Assembly (NCBI GenBank): GCA_039587515.1
Contig: JBDHII010000077.1
Location: forward strand, 1-15,549
Length of the DNA: 15,549 bases
Source of the DNA: Gemmatimonadota bacterium
GTDB taxonomy: Bacteria; Gemmatimonadota; Gemmatimonadetes; Longimicrobiales; Gaopeijiaceae
Direction of reading: 5' to 3'
The translations under genes and the position numbers were made by a program. Shown here piece by piece: positions 391-15,549 of this stretch (the first letter of the stretch is position 1; each line of letters opens with the position of its first letter). The notes beneath the pieces are model-generated. The model did no database searches and was not told the origin of the DNA. It saw nothing but the letters and a program-made list of their open reading frames with translations.

Positions 391-1830
391 TCACGTCGTT
401 CCGAGCTTGGCGAAGTCCAGTTCGAGAGGATGAACGCCGCTGTGGGTCCAGTCGATGAACCAGACGTTGTCGCCCTCGTCACAGATGACGTTCGCGAGGT
501 TCAGGTCGCCGTGTTGGAGGCAGGTCTCCGACTGGACCGAGTCGGGATTGCGCGTGACGAGCCGTACGAGACTCTCGAGCTGATCGAGATCCACGGGCTC
601 GACGGGCCCGCCCAGCTCCTCCACGTATCCCAGAATGAGCTCCCCGTTTTCGCGGAGCCATCGGACCTGCTGCTCGGACTGCAGCCCGAGGCCGCGGAAG
701 GGGGCGACGGGAGCCCGGTCCAGGGTGTTCCCGTAGAGCTTTCCGCAGAGCAGGTCGAGCGACTTCTCCAACCGGCTCAGAAAATGTTGGACGGAGGCCT
801 CTCCCGCGGCCGTCTCGAAGTGGTCCTGCAGCGTCGTGGGACGACCCTCCATGGCCGCCAGCTCCATGCCGACCCCGAGCAGCTCTCCCTCCGTGACGGG
901 ATAGCCGAACGTCGGCACGTGCTTGCCGAAGAAGTCCTTCACCTGATGGTACCCGTCCAACTCCCTGCGCATCTGGGAGAACGCGTCGATCTTGATCACC
1001 ATCGGCTCGGTCCGCGCGTCTCCCATCCAACCGTCGGCCAGGAAGAGAAGGCTGCCGCTGAAGCCGCCGGCCAGGGCCCGAAGGTGCGTGCGGGTCCAGT
1101 GCATGCAGATCATCTGCACGATCCGCTGCGCCTCGTCCGGCAGCTGTGCCTGCGCTTCCGGAGGCCCGATCTCGCAGGGCCGGGCAGCCTCGAGACCGGC
1201 CGCCGCCGGATCGACGTCCACCCAGCGGGCGGCTTCCTCGAGATCCAGGAGGACGCGCACCCCGGAGCGGGGAAGCGTGTGCCGGAGCGCGGCGAAATGC
1301 GCTTCCGATGTGGCGCTACCCACGAGATGGGGGCAGATCGCGACCCTCTCGAAACCCAGAACGCTCCTCAGGAAGGTCGCGACCGCCTGGACGCGCTTCT
1401 CGGTGTGGCAGCCGACGACGAGAAACGTCAGGTCCGCCTCACCCTTTTCGATGCTCCGGACCTCGGCTCCACTGACCTCCGACACGACCCGGAGGAAATC
1501 GCGCCAAGGAATCAGCCCGGGTGAGCAAGAGATGCTCGGCACGCCCTCGGCGAGCTCCTCGAGGGGTTCGACCCACTCGCTGAGCGTGCCGGCCGATTCG
1601 GAGTGCGCACCGGCGGACTCCGCCTCCTCTCGCAGGAGGATCAACCGTGTGCTCGCACCCGACTCGGCAGACGCCCGGATCAGGCGAGGGAGGGGCCCGT
1701 CCCCGTACGCCCGACCTCGACCCATGAGGCGGGCGATCTCCCGTGCGCCCAGATTCGACGGGAGCCCGTTGAACTGCTTCTCCGGGCTCAGCGTGGAACG
1801 GACCAGGCTGTCGGCGACGACGATGTTCAT
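391..1830 (-). CDS. Two-domain protein: an unidentified ~220-aa N-terminal domain plus a C-terminal APH/ChoK-fold phosphotransferase (aminoglycoside phosphotransferase / homoserine-kinase-II-like).
   Basis: ATG start at 1830. The C-terminal motifs are GGFSGSLLFLADG...VIKI (nucleotide-binding region), the Brenner motif HGDLNLANV (HGDxxxxN) and FIDWTHSG (the metal-binding D), which are diagnostic of the APH/ChoK kinase fold. The N-terminal half (MNIVVADSLV...LTFLVVGCHTEKRVQAVATFL...) did not match a family by eye. The stop at 391 is 8 nt before the next minus-strand ATG. Confidence 0.7.
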   Translation of the reverse strand: MNIVVADSLVRSTLSPEKQFNGLPSNLGAREIARLMGRGRAYGDGPLPRLIRASAESGASTRLILLREEAESAGAHSESAGTLSEWVEPLEELAEGVPSISCSPGLIPWRDFLRVVSEVSGAEVRSIEKGEADLTFLVVGCHTEKRVQAVATFLRSVLGFERVAICPHLVGSATSEAHFAALRHTLPRSGVRVLLDLEEAARWVDVDPAAAGLEAARPCEIGPPEAQAQLPDEAQRIVQMICMHWTRTHLRALAGGFSGSLLFLADGWMGDARTEPMVIKIDAFSQMRRELDGYHQVKDFFGKHVPTFGYPVTEGELLGVGMELAAMEGRPTTLQDHFETAAGEASVQHFLSRLEKSLDLLCGKLYGNTLDRAPVAPFRGLGLQSEQQVRWLRENGELILGYVEELGGPVEPVDLDQLESLVRLVTRNPDSVQSETCLQHGDLNLANVICDEGDNVWFIDWTHSGVHPLELDFAKLGTT

Positions 1831-1840
1831 GCGTTATGAC

Positions 1841-3151
1841 CTAGAGGATGCAGCCGTCCGACACCAGGTCGGCCAGCTTTTCGGACTTGTCAGACGAGAT
1901 ACGGCGGAGGACCTCTTTGAACTCCGGGTAATCCGCGCGCAGCCGATTGAAGGCCGTGCTCGGCAGGAAGAAGATGTCACAGTGACTCAAAGCGTACACC
2001 GAGCCGGTCCGGCGCTCCCCCAGCAACAGTGACAGGTCGCCGAAGTAGTCTCCTGCCTCGAATTCCCCGAAAGACTTTGTGTCGCCCTCACCCCTGATCG
2101 CAAGCCGGCCGCTACCGACGAAGTAGAGTCCGGTGGCCACCTCCCCCTCCCGCACGACGTAACTGCCGGGGACGAACACCTGGGGCTCGAGGTGCATGAG
2201 GAGCGCGTTGCGAAGCGGCTCATCGGCATGGGTGAAGAGGGGAACACGCTCCGTCAGGTCCCGGGTGAGATGGTAGAGGACGTCGAGGCGGATCGGGTCG
2301 GGCAGGTCCTCGAGAAACCGCTGGGTGCTCACCCCCCGGTGCCGATCCCAGAGGTACTCGTAGTAGGCCTGGACCTGGGCCTGCAGCTCGAGGGGAACGC
2401 CTCTGTTCTGCAGGTAGCGGTTCACGCCCTCGACGCGGTCCCAGAAGGTGGACTTCGCCGCGTCGATCGCGCGGACGAGCGAGGCGATGCTTCCGATGAT
2501 CAGCGCGTACATCGAGGCACCGACGATCATGACGACCAGCGTGAAGAGATACTCGGCGTTGCGCGATGGAGTGATGTCTCCGAATCCCACGGTCGTGGTC
2601 GTCACGAACCCCCAATAGAGCGAGCGAAGGTACTGGCTGCCGACGTCCAGCGACTCGATGCCCGCGAGAACCACCCAGGAGTCCGCCGGGAATCCCTCCA
2701 CGACCGCGACGAGAAACCACCCGCAGGCGATCCAGTGGATCAGGACGAAGACGCCCACGACGAGCTTCGTGATTCTCAGATAGCCGGTGTTCGTGGAGCG
2801 CAGTCGCTCCCAGCCCCGAAAGGCTCGGAAGAGTCGGCCGATGCGAAGGAGGCGATTGGTCCTGAGCAGGAGCGCGAGCGGGATCCCGCCCAACGTGGCC
2901 GCGGAGCCGAGGAAGAGGAGATCGATCGGAACGGTGCCCGCAACGTCTGTCCAGAAGCCCGAGCGGCGGTATCGCCGAGCGATGGCTTTACGGTCGTGGA
3001 CCTCGGCTCCCCCGGCTCGGAACGGCGTGCGAAAGCCGAGCCGAATGTCGATCAGAAAGGCGAGGTCCAGCAGGTAGACGATCAGGCTCCCGACGAGGCC
3101 GACCTGCCGAAAGAAGGCGATCTGGGCGGGCACCACGACGACCGTGGCCAA
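1841..3151 (-). CDS. Cyclic-nucleotide-gated K+ channel (6TM, CNG/HCN-like; SthK/LliK/MloK1 type).
   Basis: There is an S4-like arginine ladder (LLLRTNRLLRIGRLFRAFRGWERLR) and a K+ selectivity filter (TTTVGFGD). A C-linker follows with eukaryote-like CNG/HCN spacing (YYEYLWDRHRGVSTQRFLEDLPDPIRLDVLYHLTRDL...VPLF...QVFVPGSYVVREGEVATGLYFVGSGRLAI). The CNBD phosphate-binding cassette is present (FGEFEAGDYFGDLSLLLGERRTGSVYA). The start is TTG at 3151 with no SD. The frame stays open upstream but contains no other start codon. Confidence 0.85.
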   Translation of the reverse strand: MATVVVVPAQIAFFRQVGLVGSLIVYLLDLAFLIDIRLGFRTPFRAGGAEVHDRKAIARRYRRSGFWTDVAGTVPIDLLFLGSAATLGGIPLALLLRTNRLLRIGRLFRAFRGWERLRSTNTGYLRITKLVVGVFVLIHWIACGWFLVAVVEGFPADSWVVLAGIESLDVGSQYLRSLYWGFVTTTTVGFGDITPSRNAEYLFTLVVMIVGASMYALIIGSIASLVRAIDAAKSTFWDRVEGVNRYLQNRGVPLELQAQVQAYYEYLWDRHRGVSTQRFLEDLPDPIRLDVLYHLTRDLTERVPLFTHADEPLRNALLMHLEPQVFVPGSYVVREGEVATGLYFVGSGRLAIRGEGDTKSFGEFEAGDYFGDLSLLLGERRTGSVYALSHCDIFFLPSTAFNRLRADYPEFKEVLRRISSDKSEKLADLVSDGCIL

Positions 3152-3252: not shown

Positions 3253-3585
3253 TCAGAAGCCCTCCAGCGCCTCGGCCTCGGAGGGGAAGACGGCGAAGAT
3301 CGTGCTGAACCCGGAGATCTCGAAGACTTCGGCCACCGTCTCGTTGAGGCCGCAGAGTCTCAGGTTTCCGCCGGTTCCCCGGAGCTTCTTGGCCGTGGCC
3401 AGCAGCACGCGGAGACCGGCGCTCGAGATGTAGTCGAGGTCGGTGAAGTCCACCAACACCTTCGCGACCCCCTGTGCGGCGAGGTCGTCGAGGCGCTCCT
3501 GTGCCTCGGGCGCGGTGTTGGTATCCAGGTTCCCCTCGACTTGCACGACGGTGACGCCGTCGGCCTCACGAAGTGAGATGTTCAC
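3253..3585 (-). CDS. Anti-sigma-factor antagonist (single STAS domain, RsbV/SpoIIAA-like).
   Basis: 110 aa. The motif ...LVDFTDLDYISSAGLRVLL... carries the phosphorylatable Ser context seen in SpoIIAA/RsbV. The GTG start at 3585 is preceded by a GAGGAGGA SD. GTGA overlaps the stop of the upstream PP2C-kinase gene. Confidence 0.85.
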   Translation of the reverse strand: MNISLREADGVTVVQVEGNLDTNTAPEAQERLDDLAAQGVAKVLVDFTDLDYISSAGLRVLLATAKKLRGTGGNLRLCGLNETVAEVFEISGFSTIFAVFPSEAEALEGF

Positions 3586-5279
3586 GCATCCTCCTCATCG
3601 GTTTCGATGCCAGAAAGGTATTTCACCAGGACCACCACGTTCCGGTCCGTACGTCGGGTGTAGGACACCTCGTCCATCAAGCTCTCGACGAGGTGGATGC
3701 CGAGACCGCCGATGTCGCGCTCGTCGATCTCCAGAGCGGTGTCCGGGCTCGCCCGCCCGAAGGGGTTGAACGGCTGCCCGTCGTCGGTCAGACGAACGGC
3801 GAGCCGATCCGACGAGAGCTCGATGTGGACGTCGATCACGTGCTCTTCGTCGTCGGTGTACGCATAGGAAATGACGTTGTTGAGCAAGTCGTCGAAGACG
3901 AGCTTCAAGCTTCGGCGGACCTTCTCCGGGAGGCCGTGCTCGGCCGAGAACGCTTCGAAGGCCTCGTTGACCCGGTCGATCTCCTCCAGACGGTTCGCGG
4001 CCTCGACGTGAAGCACGTGAATGTCCGCCGCCCCCCCGGCCCGCCCGACGAAGCGGACAGCGAGAACCGTCACGTCGTCCGCCTGCTCGGCCTCGGCCTG
4101 GAAGCGCCAGACGTCCTCGGTGGACGCCGCCACCATGTCCTCCACGGTCTCGAACGGCTTCGAGTCCAGGATCTCGACCAGACGGTCCTCTTCGTAGAGC
4201 GTGCCGTCCGGATCCATCGCCTCGGTCACGCCGTCCGTGTACAGGAAGACGAAGTCGCCCGACTCCAACTGGCCCTTGGACTCTCCGTAGACCAGCCCGT
4301 CGACCGCGCCGATCACCGGCCCGTGCCGCTTGTCGAGCCGGATGCTCTGACCGTCCGACCGCTTCAGGTACGGCGGGTTGTGGCCCGCGTTGGTGTAGAG
4401 GAACTCGCCGGTGCTCACATCCAGGATTCCGAGCCATAGCGTGACGAACATCGCCGAGTCGTTGTTCTGGGAGATCTCGTCGTTGACATGGGTCAGAATG
4501 CTCGCCGGGGAAAAGTCGTTCGTCGCCCGGGATTTGATCAGCGTCTTGGTGACGGCCATGAAGAGCGCGGCCGGGACGCCCTTCCCCGAAACGTCGCCCA
4601 CGCAAAAGCAGAATCGGTCTTCGTCGATCAGGAAGAAGTCGTAGAAGTCCCCGCCCACCTCCCTCGCCGGCTCCAGCGTGGCGAACACGGTGAAGTCGTT
4701 GCGGTGCGGGAACGGAGGGAACTCGAGTGGGAGCATGCTCATCTGAATGTCCCGCCCGATGTTCAGCTCGCTCTCCATGCGCTCCTTGGCCGTCGTCGTT
4801 CGACGCAGGTTGTCGAAAGACTCCTGCAGCTCGCGGTTCTTGACCGTGAGCTCGCCCATCAGCGCGTCGCGACTCTTCTCTTCCACCATCGCGCGCAAGG
4901 CCGCGAGCCGACGCTCCGACAGCGCCGCCTGATTCAGGCTGGCGAGATGCAAGCCGAGCCTGAGAGCGGGCTCTCCGTCCACGCGCACACGGTGCACGTT
5001 GTCGAAGAAGGCTGCCGCGAACTCCCCGTCGACCTCACGGTCGACGCCCACGAAATCGAGGACGAGTTCCGGCATCACCGCGTCCGGGAGGACCCGCACG
5101 TCGATGCGTCCCGCGTCCGACATGCGCTCCACGACTCTGTAGAGCTGTGAGGTCACCGAGGCGATTCGGCTCGCCAGCATTCGGTCCCCTGTCAGCTCCT
5201 CCAACACACGCTGGACCTTCCGGCGTGCGTCGGAAACGGAGCCGATCCCGCCCCCCGTGATCGTTCCGACGTCGATCAT
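3582..5279 (-). CDS. Three-part signalling protein: an unknown N-terminal domain (~150 aa), a PP2C phosphatase (SpoIIE/RsbU type) and a C-terminal RsbW/SpoIIAB-like GHKL serine kinase (anti-sigma-factor type).
   Basis: ATG at 5279. A coiled-coil lead-in (ELNIGRDIQMSMLP) precedes the PP2C metal-site motifs GGDFYDF, GDVSGKGVPAALFMA, YTDGVTEA and DDVTVLAV. The C-terminal HATPase_c motifs are NNVISYAY (N box), DDGQPFNP (D/G box) and GGLGIHLV (G box). ATGA overlaps the upstream gene and GTGA overlaps the downstream STAS gene. Confidence 0.85.
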   Translation of the reverse strand: MIDVGTITGGGIGSVSDARRKVQRVLEELTGDRMLASRIASVTSQLYRVVERMSDAGRIDVRVLPDAVMPELVLDFVGVDREVDGEFAAAFFDNVHRVRVDGEPALRLGLHLASLNQAALSERRLAALRAMVEEKSRDALMGELTVKNRELQESFDNLRRTTTAKERMESELNIGRDIQMSMLPLEFPPFPHRNDFTVFATLEPAREVGGDFYDFFLIDEDRFCFCVGDVSGKGVPAALFMAVTKTLIKSRATNDFSPASILTHVNDEISQNNDSAMFVTLWLGILDVSTGEFLYTNAGHNPPYLKRSDGQSIRLDKRHGPVIGAVDGLVYGESKGQLESGDFVFLYTDGVTEAMDPDGTLYEEDRLVEILDSKPFETVEDMVAASTEDVWRFQAEAEQADDVTVLAVRFVGRAGGAADIHVLHVEAANRLEEIDRVNEAFEAFSAEHGLPEKVRRSLKLVFDDLLNNVISYAYTDDEEHVIDVHIELSSDRLAVRLTDDGQPFNPFGRASPDTALEIDERDIGGLGIHLVESLMDEVSYTRRTDRNVVVLVKYLSGIETDEEDA

Positions 5280-6376
5280 CGCGTCTTGAAACGACAGACG
5301 ACCACGGTCGCGTCGTCGTGTCTCTTTCCGTATCGGCCCACGATCTTCTCGGCTACGGTTTCGGCCGACTGGTAGCGCAGCTGAGGGTAGTCGTCGAACG
5401 TCGTGCGGTCCGAGATGCCGTCCGTGTGAATGATCAGCACGTCTCCCTCGGTGAGCCGGGCTGAATCGACACGGACATTCTTGACCTGAGAGCCCACGGT
5501 GCCTGCCGTGGCCGTGAGCCGCAGGGCTCGCTCTCCCTCGAGTCGAAGGACCGTGTTCCCGACCGCGGCATAGCGTGTCGTTCCCGAAGACAGCTCGATC
5601 CAGCAGAGAGAGACGGCGGCGCCTACGGTCTCCCGAAGTCGCTCGTTCAGCTTCTTCATCAGGTGACCGAGATCCGAGGTGGGCTCGCGCCGCACGTACC
5701 GTGTCGCGGCCTTTGCCGCCCCGTTGGCCTCCCTTCCGTGGCCCAGGCCGTCGACCACCACGATGAGCACGCCGTCTTCCACTTCGGTGACCGCGACGCC
5801 GTCTCCGCTCACGAGCTCTCCGCGACAGGGCCGGTTCACGTACGCCACCTCGAGCGGCCGGCTCTCTGCATCACCGGCCGGAAAGAGCAGGTTGCCTCGA
5901 TCCGTTCCGCGTTCCGAGAAGGCCTCGCTCCCGGTGACGGCGGCGGGCAGCGAGACCCGCCTCGGAGGAGAGACGGATTCGAGCCACTTCTGCACGACCA
6001 CCGTCGTCCCCTCACCGGTCTTGGATTCGATCGAGAAGTCGTCGACCATCCGCCTGACCCCCGGCAACCCGAGGCCGAGCGTCCCGCTCGAGCTGAAGTG
6101 ATCTCGCAGGGCCTCCTCGACGTTCTCGATACCCGGCCCCCGATCGGCGACCGTGATCTGCATGCCGCGACGGCTGCCCGATTGCACCTCTTCGATCGTG
6201 ACGCGACCGAACTCGGCGTACTTGAGAATGTTTGTCGCCAGCTCCGACACGACGGTTCCGATCGAGCGACTCTGCAGCTCGTTGAACTCCATCTCGCGCG
6301 CGAACTGCGTTGCCGAAACCACGGCGTGGGTCACGTCCGGATCGGTCCGGATTCTTCGCACGGTTCTACTCGGCAT
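5276..6376 (-). CDS. Fusion protein: an RsbT-like serine kinase (N-terminal) joined to an RsbX-like PP2C phosphatase (C-terminal).
   Basis: The N-terminal ~135 aa align by eye to B. subtilis RsbT: SELATNILKYA...TIEEVQSGSRRGMQITVADRGPGIEN...GLGLPGVRRMVDDFSIESKTGEGTTVVVQKWL. The C-terminal half aligns to RsbX: VSGDGVAV...VVVDGLGHGREAN...AAVGNTV...DVLIIHTDGIS...DDATVVVC. The start I chose is the ATG at 6376, which overlaps the end of the RsbS gene by 11 nt (gATGccgagTAG). The Arg-rich extension in the ORF track (start 6532) looks out-of-frame and is probably not translated. Confidence 0.8.
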   Translation of the reverse strand: MPSRTVRRIRTDPDVTHAVVSATQFAREMEFNELQSRSIGTVVSELATNILKYAEFGRVTIEEVQSGSRRGMQITVADRGPGIENVEEALRDHFSSSGTLGLGLPGVRRMVDDFSIESKTGEGTTVVVQKWLESVSPPRRVSLPAAVTGSEAFSERGTDRGNLLFPAGDAESRPLEVAYVNRPCRGELVSGDGVAVTEVEDGVLIVVVDGLGHGREANGAAKAATRYVRREPTSDLGHLMKKLNERLRETVGAAVSLCWIELSSGTTRYAAVGNTVLRLEGERALRLTATAGTVGSQVKNVRVDSARLTEGDVLIIHTDGISDRTTFDDYPQLRYQSAETVAEKIVGRYGKRHDDATVVVCRFKTR

Positions 6377-6839
6377 CGTCCTCGTCGACCGACGTCGCCT
6401 CAGTGGGCGCCCCCGCCTCGAGCTCGGTATCCGCTTCAAGGTCGGACTCCCCCTCGCCCGCGGGCTCCGTACGGCGCAGCTCCGCCATGCGTGCGAAGGC
6501 ATCGTCGAGCGTCGCGGTGGCCTCCACACCACGCGTATCCGCTCCCAGGTCGATCAGGGCCGAGACCACGCCGGGCTGGAGGCCGGATACGACGGTCACG
6601 GCGCCGAGGAGCCGTGCCATCCGCATGGTGTCGCGAAGCGCCTGAAACTCGACCGAGTCCATCACCGTCACGCCCGACAGATCCAGAATGACACCGCGAG
6701 CTCCCGAAGCGCGGACGAACTCGAGCAGCTCGTTGCGGAAGGCGCTGAGAATCCGGTCGTCCAGATCCACCTGGATCGACGCGACCACGCACTCCTGGGC
6801 CAGCTGGAGCGGGATCTTCGACGCTTCCTCCGTACTCAT
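6366..6839 (-). CDS. rsbS: RsbS-like STAS protein (stressosome core antagonist) with an acidic C-terminal tail.
   Basis: GVILDLSGVTVMDSVEFQAL...LLGAVTVVSGLQPGVVSALIDLG aligns with the B. subtilis RsbS segment VVIDLTSVDMIDSFIAKVL...GIQPAVAVTLIELG and conserves the phospho-Ser. ATG at 6839. The start lies 2 nt after the rsbR stop. Confidence 0.85.
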   Translation of the reverse strand: MSTEEASKIPLQLAQECVVASIQVDLDDRILSAFRNELLEFVRASGARGVILDLSGVTVMDSVEFQALRDTMRMARLLGAVTVVSGLQPGVVSALIDLGADTRGVEATATLDDAFARMAELRRTEPAGEGESDLEADTELEAGAPTEATSVDEDDAE

Positions 6840-6841
6840 CT

Positions 6842-7753
6842 TCAGCGCGCGCCGCTTCCCTTTCGTCCGATCGTCTGAACCGCGTCGGCCAGCGCGTCGC
6901 GCATCGTCGCCGTCGTCTTCACCTCACCCACGTCGATCCCGAGGTCGACGATCGTCTGGGCGATGGCCGGCGAGACTCCGGAGATCGTCGTCTCACAGCC
7001 CATGAGCTTGGTCGCCCGGGTGATCTTGATGAGGTGGTTCGCCACGGCCGTATCCACGACTCCAACCCCGCTGATGTCGAGAATGAAGACGCGGGCCTGC
7101 GACTCGGCGATCTTGCCGAGCGTGGCGTTCATGATGTCCCGAGACCGCTTCGAATCGATGATTCCGACGATCGGCAGGAACAGGAGGCTCTCCCAGATCT
7201 GCGTCACCGGCGTCGACATCTCCATGAGCGACCGGGACTGGGCGGTCAGCGTCTGCTCGACGAGGTGATTGTAGGTGTCGACGACGATGGCCGTGTCGAG
7301 ATGCAAGAGCTTGATGACGGCATCGAGCGTGGGAGCCCGATCAGCATCCGCGAAATCCCCCTCACGGATGACCATGCTGAACAGCTCCTGAAACATGTTC
7401 ATCCCGGCGAAGTACGTGTTCAGCGGCAGTCCGATGCGGGCATGCGCCTCTCCGACGAGCCGGCGCCGCTCGACGTATTCCGCATCGACCGTCCCCGCCA
7501 TGAAGGCCTCCCAGTAGCCCTGTTGCAGGGATTGGACGCGCTTCAGCGTCTCGGGATCCGCGAAGAACTCGTCGTAGTCGGGGAGCTTGGCGAGCCACTC
7601 GTACCACTTGTCCACAAGCTCGTCCATTCGGGCCAAGGCCTGCTCCCCGAAGATACGAATCCGCTCCAGGCCTTCATCGTCGAGGCGATACAGCTCCAGG
7701 AGCGCCCTGTGATCGACATGATGGTCGCCCGTCGTTGCGTAGTGACCGGCCAT
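6842..7753 (-). CDS. rsbR: RsbR-like stressosome sensor: an N-terminal globin-coupled sensor (protoglobin-type) domain plus a C-terminal STAS domain.
   Basis: The C-terminus VFILDISGVGVVDTAVANHLIKITRATKLMGCETTISGVSPAIAQTIVDLGIDV is near-colinear with B. subtilis RsbRA (GVPVVDTMVAHHI...GIRPEIAQTIVNLGIEL), including the Thr phospho-sites. The N-terminal domain shows globin-sensor features (YWEAF..., VGEAHARIGLPLNTYFAG with a candidate proximal His). The start is the ATG at 7753 behind an AGGAGG SD (AGGAGGCGAGCTTTCAATG). The ORF-track extension to 8011 is Arg/Trp-rich out-of-frame junk. Confidence 0.8.
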   Translation of the reverse strand: MAGHYATTGDHHVDHRALLELYRLDDEGLERIRIFGEQALARMDELVDKWYEWLAKLPDYDEFFADPETLKRVQSLQQGYWEAFMAGTVDAEYVERRRLVGEAHARIGLPLNTYFAGMNMFQELFSMVIREGDFADADRAPTLDAVIKLLHLDTAIVVDTYNHLVEQTLTAQSRSLMEMSTPVTQIWESLLFLPIVGIIDSKRSRDIMNATLGKIAESQARVFILDISGVGVVDTAVANHLIKITRATKLMGCETTISGVSPAIAQTIVDLGIDVGEVKTTATMRDALADAVQTIGRKGSGAR

Positions 7754-7805: not shown

Positions 7806-9704
7806 TCAATTCTCGTGTTCGACTGCGATCTCGATGGCATCGCGAAGCGTGCGCGCCGTGACGATGCCGTGAATGTCCACGTTGCTCTCCGCCATCCGTG
7901 CGGCCATCTCCGGCCGCACCCCGGATATGATCGCCCGGGCCCCCAACAAGCCGGCCGAGCGCGCGACCTTGAGAAGCCCCTGGGCGACATCGTCGTCCAG
8001 GTTGGGCACACCCGTCAGATCCAGGATCGCGAACCGCGCACCCTTCTCGTGCAGCTGACTCGTCAGCGACTGGCGAAGCTGCTCACAGCGGGCCGTGTCG
8101 AGCTCGCCCACGAGAGGGAGCACGACCACGTCGTCGTGAATCGGGATGAGCGGGGTCGAGAGCGCTTCGATCGAGCGGTTTTGCCGATCGATCAGCTCTC
8201 GAAGCGAGACGCGCATCGCCTCGAAGCTGCCAGCCAGCTCCCCGATCTCGTCACCCCGATCGACTTCGACCTGGGCTTCGAGGTCGCCGCTCGCCAGTTG
8301 ACTCGCCGTGACGGAGAGCGCTCGGATCGGGCGCGTCAGATTTCCTGCGAACCAGACTGCGAGCGCACCGAGGAGCGGAAGAAGGAGCGCGACCCACAGG
8401 AGCATGCGATTGCGCTGAGCGACGACCGGCGAGAGCGCCTCCGCGGCGTCGATCTCACTCATCAAAACCCAATCCAGGTCTGGAATGCTCAGGGGTCGGA
8501 AGCTCGAGAACACCTCGACGTCCCGGTAGTCCGGAAAGCGGGCCACGCCCGTCTCGCCGCCGAGCGCGAGCTCCGTACCGCGGGTCCGGACGGGCTGGAG
8601 GCCTACGGCGCTCCCCTGCGCCTCGATGGACCGAACCGTTGCCGGAGGCACACCCGCCTCACCGATCGCCGTGAGATACGCCTCGACGTCCTCCACCAGG
8701 AACCTCGACTCGGTCCTCAGCCGGTAGTCGGGGCCTACGAGGTAGGACTCGCCGGACTCACCGAGCCCGGTCGCCTGCCAAGCCGCCCCGCTCGTCATCA
8801 CGTCGTTGATGCGGTCCAACGGAAGCTGGAAAACCAGAACGCCCAGGAGCTCGCCGTCCTGCATCACGGGTGAGGCGATGAAAGAAGCTTGGGCACCGTA
8901 GGAAGGAGCGTACGGCTCGAAGTCTTCGAGCCGCGTGAAAGCGGCGCTTCCGGCGGCCAGCGCAGCGCGGTAGACCGAAGCGAGGTTGGATTCTCGGTAC
9001 GGACCCGCCTCGAGCGTCGTGCCGAAGTCGACCTCTTTGAAAACCGAGTAGACGATGCGGTGCGTCTGCGCATCGACCAGGAAGACGTCGTAGTAGCCGA
9101 AGCGTTCCAGGAAGCTCCGGAGCAGCGGGTGATAGCGCCCATGCACCGCGTCGTACCGCGTGCCCGCTTCGGCACGGTCCAGCAGGTGCTTGGAGCCCAC
9201 AGCGAAGGGGTTCGAGCTCACGTAGAGGTATTGGAGTAGACGCCCCAGTCCGTCCGATGGCCAATATTCCGAGAGCGGGCCGGCATCGTCCGAATTGGCC
9301 GAGAGCCTCGGAAGAAACTCGTCCTGGTAGTAGAGCCTCAGGCCGAGGTCGAGGTCACTCGCCGACGGCCCGGAGGCCAGAAGCTCGTTCTCCAGCGTTC
9401 GCGCCGCGGCAGTAAACTCGCGGAGCGCCTCCACGACCATGAGGTTCTCGGACTGGGTGACCACCTGGTCGCGGATCGTCTCGAAGTAGCCCTCGATCTG
9501 CCGGCCCTTGAGCTCCCGGACCGACGTCAGTAGATCGAGGGCCTGCTGCTCGGAGGTGGAGACGCCGAGGCGGTAGGCCACGGCAGCCATCGTCCCGACC
9601 GAGATGATCGTTACGATCGCCAGCACCGAGAGGACGCGCAGGCGGATCGAGAGATCCCTCAGACCCTGGCTCGATGCGCCGGCTCGCTCAGACTCTGGTG
9701 ACAC
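7806..9704 (-). CDS. Membrane-anchored sensor: TM1, a ~380-aa periplasmic Cache-like (double PAS-like) domain, TM2, a HAMP domain and a C-terminal RsbR/RsbS-type STAS domain.
   Basis: The hydrophobic segments are VLSVLAIVTIISVGTMAAVAY and MLLWVALLLPLLGALAVWFAG. HAMP is indicated by LTRPIRALSVTASQLASGDLEAQVEVDRGDEIGELAGSFEAMRVSL. The STAS motif is FAILDLTGVPNLDDDVAQGL...AIISGVRPEMAARMAES, which is stressosome-type but has Asp in place of the phosphorylatable Ser/Thr. The GTG start at 9704 overlaps the upstream small ORF by 17 nt. Confidence 0.75.
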   Translation of the reverse strand: MSPESERAGASSQGLRDLSIRLRVLSVLAIVTIISVGTMAAVAYRLGVSTSEQQALDLLTSVRELKGRQIEGYFETIRDQVVTQSENLMVVEALREFTAAARTLENELLASGPSASDLDLGLRLYYQDEFLPRLSANSDDAGPLSEYWPSDGLGRLLQYLYVSSNPFAVGSKHLLDRAEAGTRYDAVHGRYHPLLRSFLERFGYYDVFLVDAQTHRIVYSVFKEVDFGTTLEAGPYRESNLASVYRAALAAGSAAFTRLEDFEPYAPSYGAQASFIASPVMQDGELLGVLVFQLPLDRINDVMTSGAAWQATGLGESGESYLVGPDYRLRTESRFLVEDVEAYLTAIGEAGVPPATVRSIEAQGSAVGLQPVRTRGTELALGGETGVARFPDYRDVEVFSSFRPLSIPDLDWVLMSEIDAAEALSPVVAQRNRMLLWVALLLPLLGALAVWFAGNLTRPIRALSVTASQLASGDLEAQVEVDRGDEIGELAGSFEAMRVSLRELIDRQNRSIEALSTPLIPIHDDVVVLPLVGELDTARCEQLRQSLTSQLHEKGARFAILDLTGVPNLDDDVAQGLLKVARSAGLLGARAIISGVRPEMAARMAESNVDIHGIVTARTLRDAIEIAVEHEN

Positions 9705-14631: not shown

Positions 14632-15459
14632 TCAGCCGTCCCAGGGCACGCGATAGAGCGAAACCGGCTCAGGAAAGCCTTTCAGCTCCGCCGTGCCACA
14701 GACCTCGAACGGGAGGTTCTTGCCGAGGCAGAGCTCCCGAACGACGCCGGCCGCCAGGATCTCCCCGCTCTCGGCCTCGTCACAGACCCGGGCTGCGAGG
14801 TTCACCACCGAGCCGAAGATGTCGCTGCCGCGAGAGACGGGCTCGCCTGCACTCAGTCCGATGCGGATGTGGAGCGCATGCTCGGGATGGGCCTCCCGAT
14901 GATCGGCGAACGCACGCTGCGTGTCGCGGGCGCAGGCCACGGCCGCCGTGGCATCGGCGAAGGAAGCGATGGCGCCATCTCCCGTGTGCTTCACCTTGCG
15001 TCCGTGATGCCGATGAATCTGCCCGCGCAGCAGGTGATCGTGTGCCTCCATCAGCTCCATCATCTCGTGGTCGCCGAGCTCCTGCACCAGCGCCGTGGAC
15101 CCCACGAGGTCGGTGAACATGAGGGTTCGGAAGGCGGAGACAGGCTCGCCCATCGACCCGATCGCAGCGCCCAGGTCGTCGAAGCTCCCGCCGCCGAGGA
15201 AGGCGGCCACGAGCTCGTCCTCGACGCTGATGATCTCGTCCGCCACGAGCCCGTGCGCCTTGCGATGAACCGCGTGACAGGCCTCCTCGTTCGGCGCCTC
15301 CACCAAGCAGCACACCGTACCGCGCTTCTCGTCGAACCAGTACTTGAGGTACTTGACGCCGTGGGCTTCCTGGGCCTCCAGATCGGCGATGTGCCCCTCA
15401 CGGATGGATTCCGGCGTGGCACCTTCCAGGTTGCGATGGATGTCGAGAAAAAGCGGCAC
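14632..15459 (-). CDS. Class III adenylate/guanylate cyclase with an N-terminal DUF4242-like (SCO4226-type) domain.
   Basis: A GTG start at 15459 gives MPLFLDIHR..., the canonical DUF4242 N-terminus, behind an AAGGGAGGA SD. The ORF track's upstream start at 15528 is probably over-extended. The cyclase motifs are FTDLVGSTAL, HTGDGAIASF, RIGLSAGEPV and GSVVNLAARV. Confidence 0.8.
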   Translation of the reverse strand: MPLFLDIHRNLEGATPESIREGHIADLEAQEAHGVKYLKYWFDEKRGTVCCLVEAPNEEACHAVHRKAHGLVADEIISVEDELVAAFLGGGSFDDLGAAIGSMGEPVSAFRTLMFTDLVGSTALVQELGDHEMMELMEAHDHLLRGQIHRHHGRKVKHTGDGAIASFADATAAVACARDTQRAFADHREAHPEHALHIRIGLSAGEPVSRGSDIFGSVVNLAARVCDEAESGEILAAGVVRELCLGKNLPFEVCGTAELKGFPEPVSLYRVPWDG

Positions 15460-15549
15460 GAATCCTCCCTTGATGTTTGGGCGTCGAGGATCATGGTCAG
15501 GGGCGATGCCAAGATCAAGGCGAGGCACGGCACGGGCGACTGGCCGGCA

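Follow-up and report, generated by a model that had tools for sequence, protein, structure and literature searches.

The stretch analysed here, hereafter the window, is 15,549 nt of DNA from a Gemmatimonadota bacterium (contig JBDHII010000077.1 of assembly GCA_039587515.1), and on its minus strand lies a stressosome operon that is closed by a long open reading frame (ORF) at 3582-5279, hereafter the target, and a small STAS gene downstream of it. The target encodes a phosphatase of the protein phosphatase 2C (PP2C) type joined to an RsbW-type kinase, and in front of both stands a domain of about 135 amino acids (aa), the N-domain, which is a duplicated and, to judge by its motifs, catalytically dead copy of RsbT. 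It belongs to an unannotated family of RsbT-derived pseudokinase domains that marks stressosome outputs. The genes of the operon, in the order RsbR(dCache) - RsbR(globin) - RsbS - RsbT::RsbX - target - STAS, are:

7806-9704, minus strand: dCache-HAMP-STAS protein, a membrane-type RsbR-like sensor and the first gene of the operon (Pfam dCache_1, HAMP, STAS)
6842-7753, minus strand: globin-coupled RsbR, protoglobin plus STAS (Pfam Protoglobin E 7.1e-28, STAS E 3.6e-12); the start at 7753 is putative, within an ORF that runs to 8011
6366-6839, minus strand: RsbS-like single STAS protein (Pfam STAS E 6.3e-09)
5276-6376, minus strand: RsbT-RsbX fusion, GHKL kinase then PP2C (Pfam HATPase_c_2 E 6.3e-13, SpoIIE E 1.3e-12); the start near 6376 is putative, within a full ORF of 5276-6532
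3582-5279, minus strand: the target, 565 aa
3253-3585, minus strand: single-domain STAS protein of 110 aa, RsbV/SpoIIAA/HsbA-like (Pfam STAS E 1e-25; NCBIfam ant_ant_sig E 6.6e-28)

The ORF ahead of the target is taken to be an RsbT-RsbX fusion because its domains come as HATPase_c_2 then SpoIIE, the opposite order to that in the target; a first-pass annotation, made from the sequence alone, had likewise described the target as the second kinase/phosphatase fusion of the block with the order reversed. The RsbT half of the window fusion has its N-box, G1 and G2 intact in the RsbT alignment and looks like an active kinase, and the sequences closest to it, at 65-67% identity, are from metagenome-assembled genomes (MAGs) of Gemmatimonadota. 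The ATG of the target at 5279 overlaps the TGA of the RsbT-RsbX gene (ATGA), and at 3582-3585 the GTG start of the small STAS gene overlaps the TGA of the target (GTGA), the latter as already read in that annotation. A gene like the RsbS gene of the window is at the equivalent position in four other loci (L001, L006, L008 and L090).

The product of the small STAS gene has the motif Y-I-S-S-A-G and is presumed to be the substrate and partner of the target's PP2C and kinase domains; in L008 the target orthologue is likewise followed by a small STAS gene. In a deltaproteobacterial MAG (L057, 10674-12530) it is a homologue of the dCache-HAMP-STAS protein that comes directly after the target orthologue, replacing the small STAS gene, and because of that position the dCache-HAMP-STAS protein may serve the PP2C-kinase protein as substrate or partner, instead of or besides being a stressosome subunit.

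The target itself is made up of the following parts:

4875-5279, minus strand, aa 1-135: N-domain, a kinase-dead RsbT-like GHKL domain by its motifs
4695-4874, minus strand, aa ~136-195: helical linker, with helices at 137-160 and 164-181 in the full-length model; highly conserved in 109 homologues
4044-4694, minus strand, aa ~196-412: SpoIIE/RsbU-type PP2C phosphatase (Pfam SpoIIE aa 219-410, E 8.9e-54)
3618-4019, minus strand, aa ~421-554: RsbW/SpoIIAB-type GHKL serine kinase, anti-sigma-like (Pfam HATPase_c_2 aa 429-553, E 7.9e-25)

These Pfam matches, with that of the separate STAS gene, uphold the order phosphatase, RsbW-type kinase, STAS substrate that had been proposed. The ORF starts with ATG, has no internal stops, and aligns end to end and almost without gaps, N-terminus included, with more than 100 homologues of 550-575 aa (50-77% identity); a frameshift or wrong start is ruled out by these collinear homologues, with the ATGA coupling also speaking for the start as called, and the worry of the first-pass annotation that the domain boundaries could be frameshift artefacts falls away.

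Against PF07228 the PP2C scores 182.8 bits (cut-off 25) with 191 of the 192 profile positions covered, and the C-terminal kinase scores 87.7 bits against PF13581 (cut-off 27.4) and E 3.4e-14 against NCBIfam RsbW. Among 61 homologues the phosphatase motifs GGDFYD, GDVSGKG, TDG and DD are invariant, as are the metal-binding aspartates D211, D214, D229, D349 and D401/D402; in the kinase N468, D499 and G524-G525-L526-G527 are invariant and G501 is nearly so. Because these catalytic motifs are invariant, both domains look active. The full-length AlphaFold2 (AF2) model has a mean per-residue confidence (pLDDT) of 87.5 and a predicted template-modelling score (pTM) of 0.65, and falls into blocks of aa 1-133, the helices 137-160 and 164-181, aa 196-410 and aa 421-554. 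Its best match among solved structures (Foldseek) is 3ke6, the RsbU and RsbW domains of Rv1364c, at E 1.4e-20, which bears out the likeness to Rv1364c suggested earlier; the PP2C part also matches the PP2C domains of RssB, SiaA, SpoIIE and RsbX. Rv1364c of Mycobacterium tuberculosis, unlike the target, is not behind an RsbRSTX module.

Fold and descent of the N-domain

Pfam assigns nothing in aa 1-218 of the target, and NCBIfam matches begin only at about aa 130. There is no Pfam match to Response_reg in the target, and the NCBIfam match to RssB of Pseudomonas covers aa 130-367 and is far under its cut-off. All 48 N-termini of an alignment of the N-domain (A1) were scanned against Pfam at E up to 10 with no significant match, PF13581 and PF08673 included, and the N-domain profile had none among the sequences of the PDB; chance-level profile matches in these PDB and Pfam searches (CNK at E 0.027, Wzz at E 0.1, assorted DUFs) were rejected. 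The first-pass annotation had judged the N-terminus unlike the N-domain of RsbU and had named a PAS, GAF or RsbU_N identity as what would overturn its reading. All three were looked for and are rejected, there being no profile match to any of them and the fold being wrong, an alpha/beta sandwich in the model. The same Pfam scan detected genuine RsbU_N domains in other loci.

From the 48-sequence alignment AF2 gave a model of aa 1-140 with pLDDT 92 and pTM 0.88 and the topology beta1-alpha1-alpha2-beta2-beta3-(short helix)-beta4-beta5-alpha. Its structural matches, with the figure as given in brackets, are Bacillus subtilis RsbW (6m36_A, 13.3), UsfX (8ih8_C, 12.0), SpoIIAB (1l0o_A, 11.6), the RsbW domain of Rv1364c (3ke6_B, 11.4) and SiaB (6kko_B, 9.2). 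As modelled, the N-domain is of the GHKL (Bergerat) fold, RsbW/RsbT subclass.

Within that subclass it is RsbT from which the domain derives. Comparison by hhalign with a profile built from 94 RsbT ORFs gave Prob 97.1% and E 7e-11 over 78 columns (N-domain 6-83 against RsbT 9-86), so that the homology spans beta1-alpha1-alpha2-beta2-beta3. Against the target's own C-terminal kinase the same comparison gave Prob 0.5%, and the N-domain as a duplicate of that kinase was rejected accordingly; in the control, RsbT against the C-terminal kinase, Prob was 96.4% over the full domain, G1 and G2 included. The N-domain hidden Markov model (HMM) matches RsbT ORFs in dozens of loci, with up to 55 bits when the HMM is broadened, and in Bacillus-type loci the RsbT ORF is the sole ORF that it lists. 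The first-pass annotation's guess of a degenerate GHKL-like domain was thus correct, and the fold, the hhalign comparison and the lost motifs sharpen it to a kinase-dead paralogue of RsbT. Its alternative, a novel module, holds as far as the domain is unannotated and fails in that the fold is a known one.

Residue conservation was counted over 271 family members. The equivalent of the N-box Asn (residue 49 of the target) is L, A, S, R or V and never a conserved Asn, and the positions equivalent to G1 (75-80) are unconserved, from which absence of kinase activity is predicted. Between beta3 and beta4 the N-domain has 16 residues (78-93) where RsbT has about 36 from the G1 Asp to its MDDF motif, and because of this difference the lid and G2 box appear to have been deleted. 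Low-scoring HMM fragments agree: by them the N-domain is some 19 residues shorter at RsbT's G1, lid and G2, and in weak second fragments 5 HMM positions cover about 24 RsbT residues.

What has been kept is largely on the first two helices. Alpha1 has E17, A18, R19 (263/271), K21 (257/271) and R23, and alpha2 has D32, A36, T37, R38 (259/271), A40, T41, S44 (all 267 ungapped members), E/Q45 and R48 (252/271), the last few forming an S-E-x-x-R remnant of the N-box helix; further conserved positions are L4 and G5 in beta1, F91-F92-D93, and R137 and L140 at the start of the linker. In RsbT, R19, R23 and N24 are implicated in RsbU binding, and a model of RsbT with RsbU buries them in the interface (PMC12143880); R19 and R23 of the N-domain align with R19 and R23 of RsbT by hhalign. 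On these sequence grounds the N-domain retains the partner face of RsbT formed by alpha1 and alpha2. It differs from RsbT, which is free-standing, in always heading a chain with a linker and an effector, as well as in the N-box Asn and DxGxG (G1) that are not conserved.

The linker has the conserved motif K-x-R-D-E-L...KN-x-EL-QES...AKERMESELNIGRDIQ. Modelled as a monomer it has lower pLDDT (59-77), and in the dimer it presumably forms a coiled coil.

Two tandem RsbT-like ORFs are present in the archaeal Candidatus Methanoperedens nitroreducens (L086, 7561-7971 and 7920-8948). The upstream one, of 137 aa, matches HMM positions 3-81 with an unusually high 55 bits, and the second is a fusion of 343 aa; the 137-aa ORF might represent a stage between RsbT and the N-domain.

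Genomic setting and spread of the N-domain

Among the contigs looked up, the genes for P0127, P0132, P0140, P0158, P0239 and the orthologue P0090 are directly behind RsbR-RsbS-RsbT-RsbX or RsbT::RsbX, each with a 4-nt start/stop overlap. The RsbR partner in N-domain loci is usually globin-coupled, and in L007 it is PAS-STAS. P0138 is preceded by a PP2C C-terminus, and the DNA upstream of P0166 is cut off and uninformative as to such neighbours.

A view of the linkage independent of the N-domain came from 80 RsbT loci fetched from one-genome-per-species contigs with a six-sequence RsbT alignment, RsbT being the anchor because the N-domain alignment has no stretch conserved enough. The N-domain HMM matches 22 of the 73 loci that have at least 1.2 kb of downstream DNA, a proportion that is not an unbiased frequency because the 80 loci are those most similar to the window RsbT. 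All 22 matches are on the RsbT strand and start 587-977 nt past the RsbT domain with one RsbX gene between; elsewhere in the RsbT loci, which reach up to 16 kb, no N-domain was found. Counted from rsbT, the domain is in the second gene on, or in the next one where T and X are fused. Besides the window, at least six loci have such a fusion (L001, L008, L009, L011, L013 and L014), and after every one seen the next gene begins with an N-domain; there is none among the RsbU_N-type or Bacillus-type loci sampled.

Ten of the RSTX loci that lack a strong N-domain match were looked at, and in six of these the protein encoded in the same slot is headed by RsbU_N, followed by HisKA_3 or HisKA kinases, GGDEF, or a PAS-GAF-kinase. 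Two of the other four end after RsbX, one from Labrenzia has a shortened N-domain, and one has the Vibrio D1 protein. The N-domain and RsbU_N are mutually exclusive and alternate in one operon slot. Like the N-domain, RsbU_N (PF08673) comes right after RST or RSTX, is N-terminal and is followed by a helical linker, and the two share effectors: PP2C, histidine kinase and, in one case, diguanylate cyclase (PMC12143880; PMC9237108). The folds are unrelated, RsbU_N being an RsbT-binding four-helix bundle and the N-domain an alpha/beta GHKL sandwich.

Word-indexed protein search was too insensitive for the N-domain, returning one fragment with the domain alone and two with the 48-sequence alignment, and for that reason 1.84 billion representative proteins were searched exhaustively with HMMER. 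This gave 761 cluster representatives at E up to 1e-3, of which 286 were at E up to 1e-10. Among the 150 matches listed the domain is at about residue 1 in all but a few, with lengths from fragments to 1,153 aa. In ten proteins scanned, what follows the N-domain is HisKA-HATPase_c-REC-REC with or without Hpt, a GAF-histidine kinase, a PAS-histidine kinase, PAS-GAF-GGDEF-HD, or PP2C alone. Pfam matches in 73 further members of at least 380 aa were to HisKA (56), HATPase_c (59), REC (27), SpoIIE (13), HATPase_c_2 (9), Hpt (9) and nucleotide cyclase (1). From these counts most members are hybrid histidine kinases and the PP2C-kinase layout of the target is a minority form. In the histidine-kinase members HisKA begins at about aa 167-182, directly after the linker, and the linker helices at 137-181 continuing into HisKA fit the coiled-coil linker mechanism shown for RsbU (PMC12143880).

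Class III adenylate/guanylate cyclases are encoded right after RSTX in Labrenzia alba (L026, 8940-9953) and in a Hyphomicrobiales MAG (L044, 4568-5581). Both have an N-domain at their N-terminus, that of Labrenzia being shortened and divergent (hhalign Prob 96.6%), and because of them stressosomes may also drive cAMP or cGMP synthesis.

In the cyanobacterial loci L016, L018, L020-L023, L029 and L030, and in the metagenomic L004 and L091, the gene after RSTX encodes an N-domain-PP2C protein of about 400-445 aa, and behind it comes a gene for some 200 aa. In the loci scanned (L016, L004 and L091) the latter is DUF6272 (SiaB-like), and in L004 SiaC comes after it. Through these gene orders stressosomes are linked to a partner switch of the SiaABC type, and such loci correspond, in unfused form, to the target's phosphatase, kinase and substrate. 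In SiaA/SiaB/SiaC of Pseudomonas aeruginosa the phosphatase SiaA has a transmembrane/HAMP N-terminus, and the kinase and substrate are from families other than RsbW and STAS.

The N-terminus (about 126 residues) of Vibrio D1, a hybrid kinase presumed to be a stressosome output (examples are L071 8957-12115 in Vibrio mimicus and L063 3995-4921 in Vibrio sp.), aligns with the N-domain profile over 119 columns (hhalign Prob 94%, E 1e-7). The aligned part includes the linker motif ELWQEKGRDEL, and the alpha2 signature is degenerate. For V. vulnificus, phenotypes of the RSTX and D1 deletions are on record (PMC10014275).

Possible routes from stressosome to output enzyme

Stressosomes are present in many phyla, and we know of no mechanism established for their signal output outside Bacillus and Listeria. 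Jia et al. (PMC4976288) state the downstream partner of Vibrio RsbT to be unknown. Heinz et al. (PMC9237108) found that some of the proteins downstream of globin-type RSTX have RsbU_N and that most do not; interaction between VvRsbT and VvD1 was not detectable, and transient phosphorylation was suggested instead. For RsbU_N with its coiled-coil linker it has been proposed that they form an exchangeable module by which RsbT controls PP2C phosphatases, histidine kinases and diguanylate cyclases (PMC12143880). In open-access full texts and bioRxiv no description was found of these proteins as bearing an RsbT-like or pseudokinase domain at the N-terminus.

The explanation to which we incline, with some reserve, is that the N-domain is a pseudo-RsbT input that couples the target, as output enzyme, to the STAS core of the stressosome via the linker. 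The pseudo-RsbT would fill the role that RsbU_N has in Bacillus-type systems, placed above a conserved helical linker through which the activity of a dimeric effector is set. With modest confidence, its partners would be those of RsbT itself, the STAS domains in the core of RsbS and RsbR. As RsbT::RsbX adds phosphate to this core or removes it, the docking of the output protein would change, and the change, passed through the linker, would shift the output towards either the PP2C or the RsbW-like kinase. These two would then set the phosphorylation of the downstream STAS protein, which would switch partners by analogy with HsbR/HsbA and CrsR/CrsA.

HsbR/HsbA of Pseudomonas aeruginosa and CrsR/CrsA of Shewanella oneidensis resemble the target in having PP2C then an RsbW-like domain, with a separate STAS antagonist (PMC6482189). 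Their input is a phospho-accepting REC domain fed by a phosphorelay, and that of the target would be the pseudo-RsbT, fed by the stressosome. Systems of the HsbR/CrsR type have RpoS, FlgM and HsbD as targets, none of which is identifiable in the window.

A broader and more tentative proposal, which we think has something short of an even chance, is that in outputs without RsbU_N, those of the Vibrio type included, RsbT is no released messenger at all. Instead a dead copy of RsbT would dock on the RsbR/RsbS STAS core, with its vacated ATP pocket serving as a phospho-reader. That pocket, in which S44, E45 and R48 lie amid the basic R19, K21 and R38, could read the Ser/Thr phosphorylation of the STAS domains, and it may either be released upon STAS phosphorylation or recognize the phosphorylated form.

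A rather doubtful alternative, though one with several points in its favour, has the N-domain as an analogue of RsbU_N that binds the RsbT half of RsbT::RsbX, for instance as a GHKL-GHKL heterodimer modelled on the SpoIIAB/RsbW homodimer, with the result that the linker is stiffened and the phosphatase activated. This is in essence what the first-pass annotation proposed. Pseudokinases commonly pair with active paralogues; the N-domain and RsbU_N have the operon slot, the N-terminal position and the output types in common, the target gene is translationally coupled to rsbT::rsbX, and RsbU_N is an established receptor of RsbT that acts via a linker (PMC12143880). STAS-core docking is favoured over RsbT binding because the best-conserved surface of the N-domain (R19, K21, R23, R38 and R48), made up of the basic alpha1/alpha2 face and what is left of the active-site helix (S44, E45, R48), resembles RsbT's own binding face and not its complement. 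It is favoured also because RsbT is often fused to RsbX just ahead of N-domain genes, an arrangement no less suited to a modifying enzyme that stays in place than to a messenger that diffuses, and because the RsbT-D1 interaction was undetectable in V. vulnificus (PMC9237108), keeping in mind that D1 is a divergent member. If instead the N-domain were a mere dimerisation or scaffold relic of gene duplication that receives no signal, regulation would come from substrate availability or from the C-terminal kinase. Domains of the RsbW/SpoIIAB type are indeed dimers, the attached effectors (histidine kinases, PP2C, cyclases and GGDEF) all work as dimers (PMC12143880), and catalysis by the N-domain has, by its motifs, been lost; yet in a mere relic one would not look for a Ser44 that is invariant and surface Arg and Lys that are nearly so in members down to 23% identity with the window domain, for restriction to the gene next after rsbX in all 22 cases, or for alternation with the signal-receiving RsbU_N, and we regard this reading as improbable. 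Least probable is that the domain acts as a second, dead RsbW which docks the target's own downstream RsbV-like STAS protein, or a sigma factor, non-catalytically: its homology is to RsbT and not to the RsbW-like domain by hhalign, about three-quarters of N-domain proteins are histidine kinases, with an RsbV-like STAS gene following in none of the five kinase loci inspected, and no ORF among those of the window that were scanned has a sigma-factor match in Pfam.

Several observations weigh against STAS-core docking by a pseudo-RsbT. The choice of the STAS core over RsbT is made from the conserved surface and homology alone, and exchangeability with RsbU_N, a known binder of RsbT, equally supports RsbT binding. 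The loss of ATP binding is read from motifs. One protein, P0184 (L002, 2788-5955; N-domain-PAS-GAF-GGDEF-HD), is encoded on a 10.7-kb contig that has no RST genes, and is the sole clear case of an N-domain away from a stressosome cluster; P0136 is beside SiaB/SiaC-like genes with the gene upstream cut off, and was not seen near RST genes. The Vibrio D1 domain goes undetected by plain HMM search (E 0.058), profile-profile comparison alone being convincing, and the bias of the RsbT survey towards relatives of the window RsbT has already been mentioned.

With these points in mind, pseudo-RsbT docking makes the N-domain a testable candidate for the missing coupling element of stressosome output, a gap stated in PMC9237108. 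Specific candidate functional residues, R19, K21, R38, S44 and R48, are to hand, and stressosome outputs can be looked for in genomes with the N-domain as a sequence signature. For the target, it would explain how a stressosome drives a phosphatase-kinase switch of the HsbR/CrsR kind without a receiver domain. If the family is as it appears, its more than 700 sequence clusters make up a new family of pseudokinase domains, and the pseudo-RsbT is a further example of a pseudokinase recruited as signalling adaptor; if direct STAS docking is true, histidine kinases, phosphatases and nucleotide cyclases would be wired to a single stress sensor in a new way. The novelty is in a variant within known signalling logic and not in a new kind of system.

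Other genes of the window

The other window ORFs scanned include a cNMP-gated channel, an APH/TCAD9 kinase-like protein, a glutamine synthetase, an ammonium transporter, an adenylate cyclase and an SPFH protein, and these look unrelated to the operon. Just downstream of the operon is the gene for the cyclic-nucleotide-gated ion channel (1841-3151, minus strand; Ion_trans and cNMP_binding), and after it comes the APH/TCAD9 kinase-like ORF (391-1830, minus strand). At the far end of the window is a gene for an SCO4226-like/adenylate-cyclase protein (14632-15528, minus strand).

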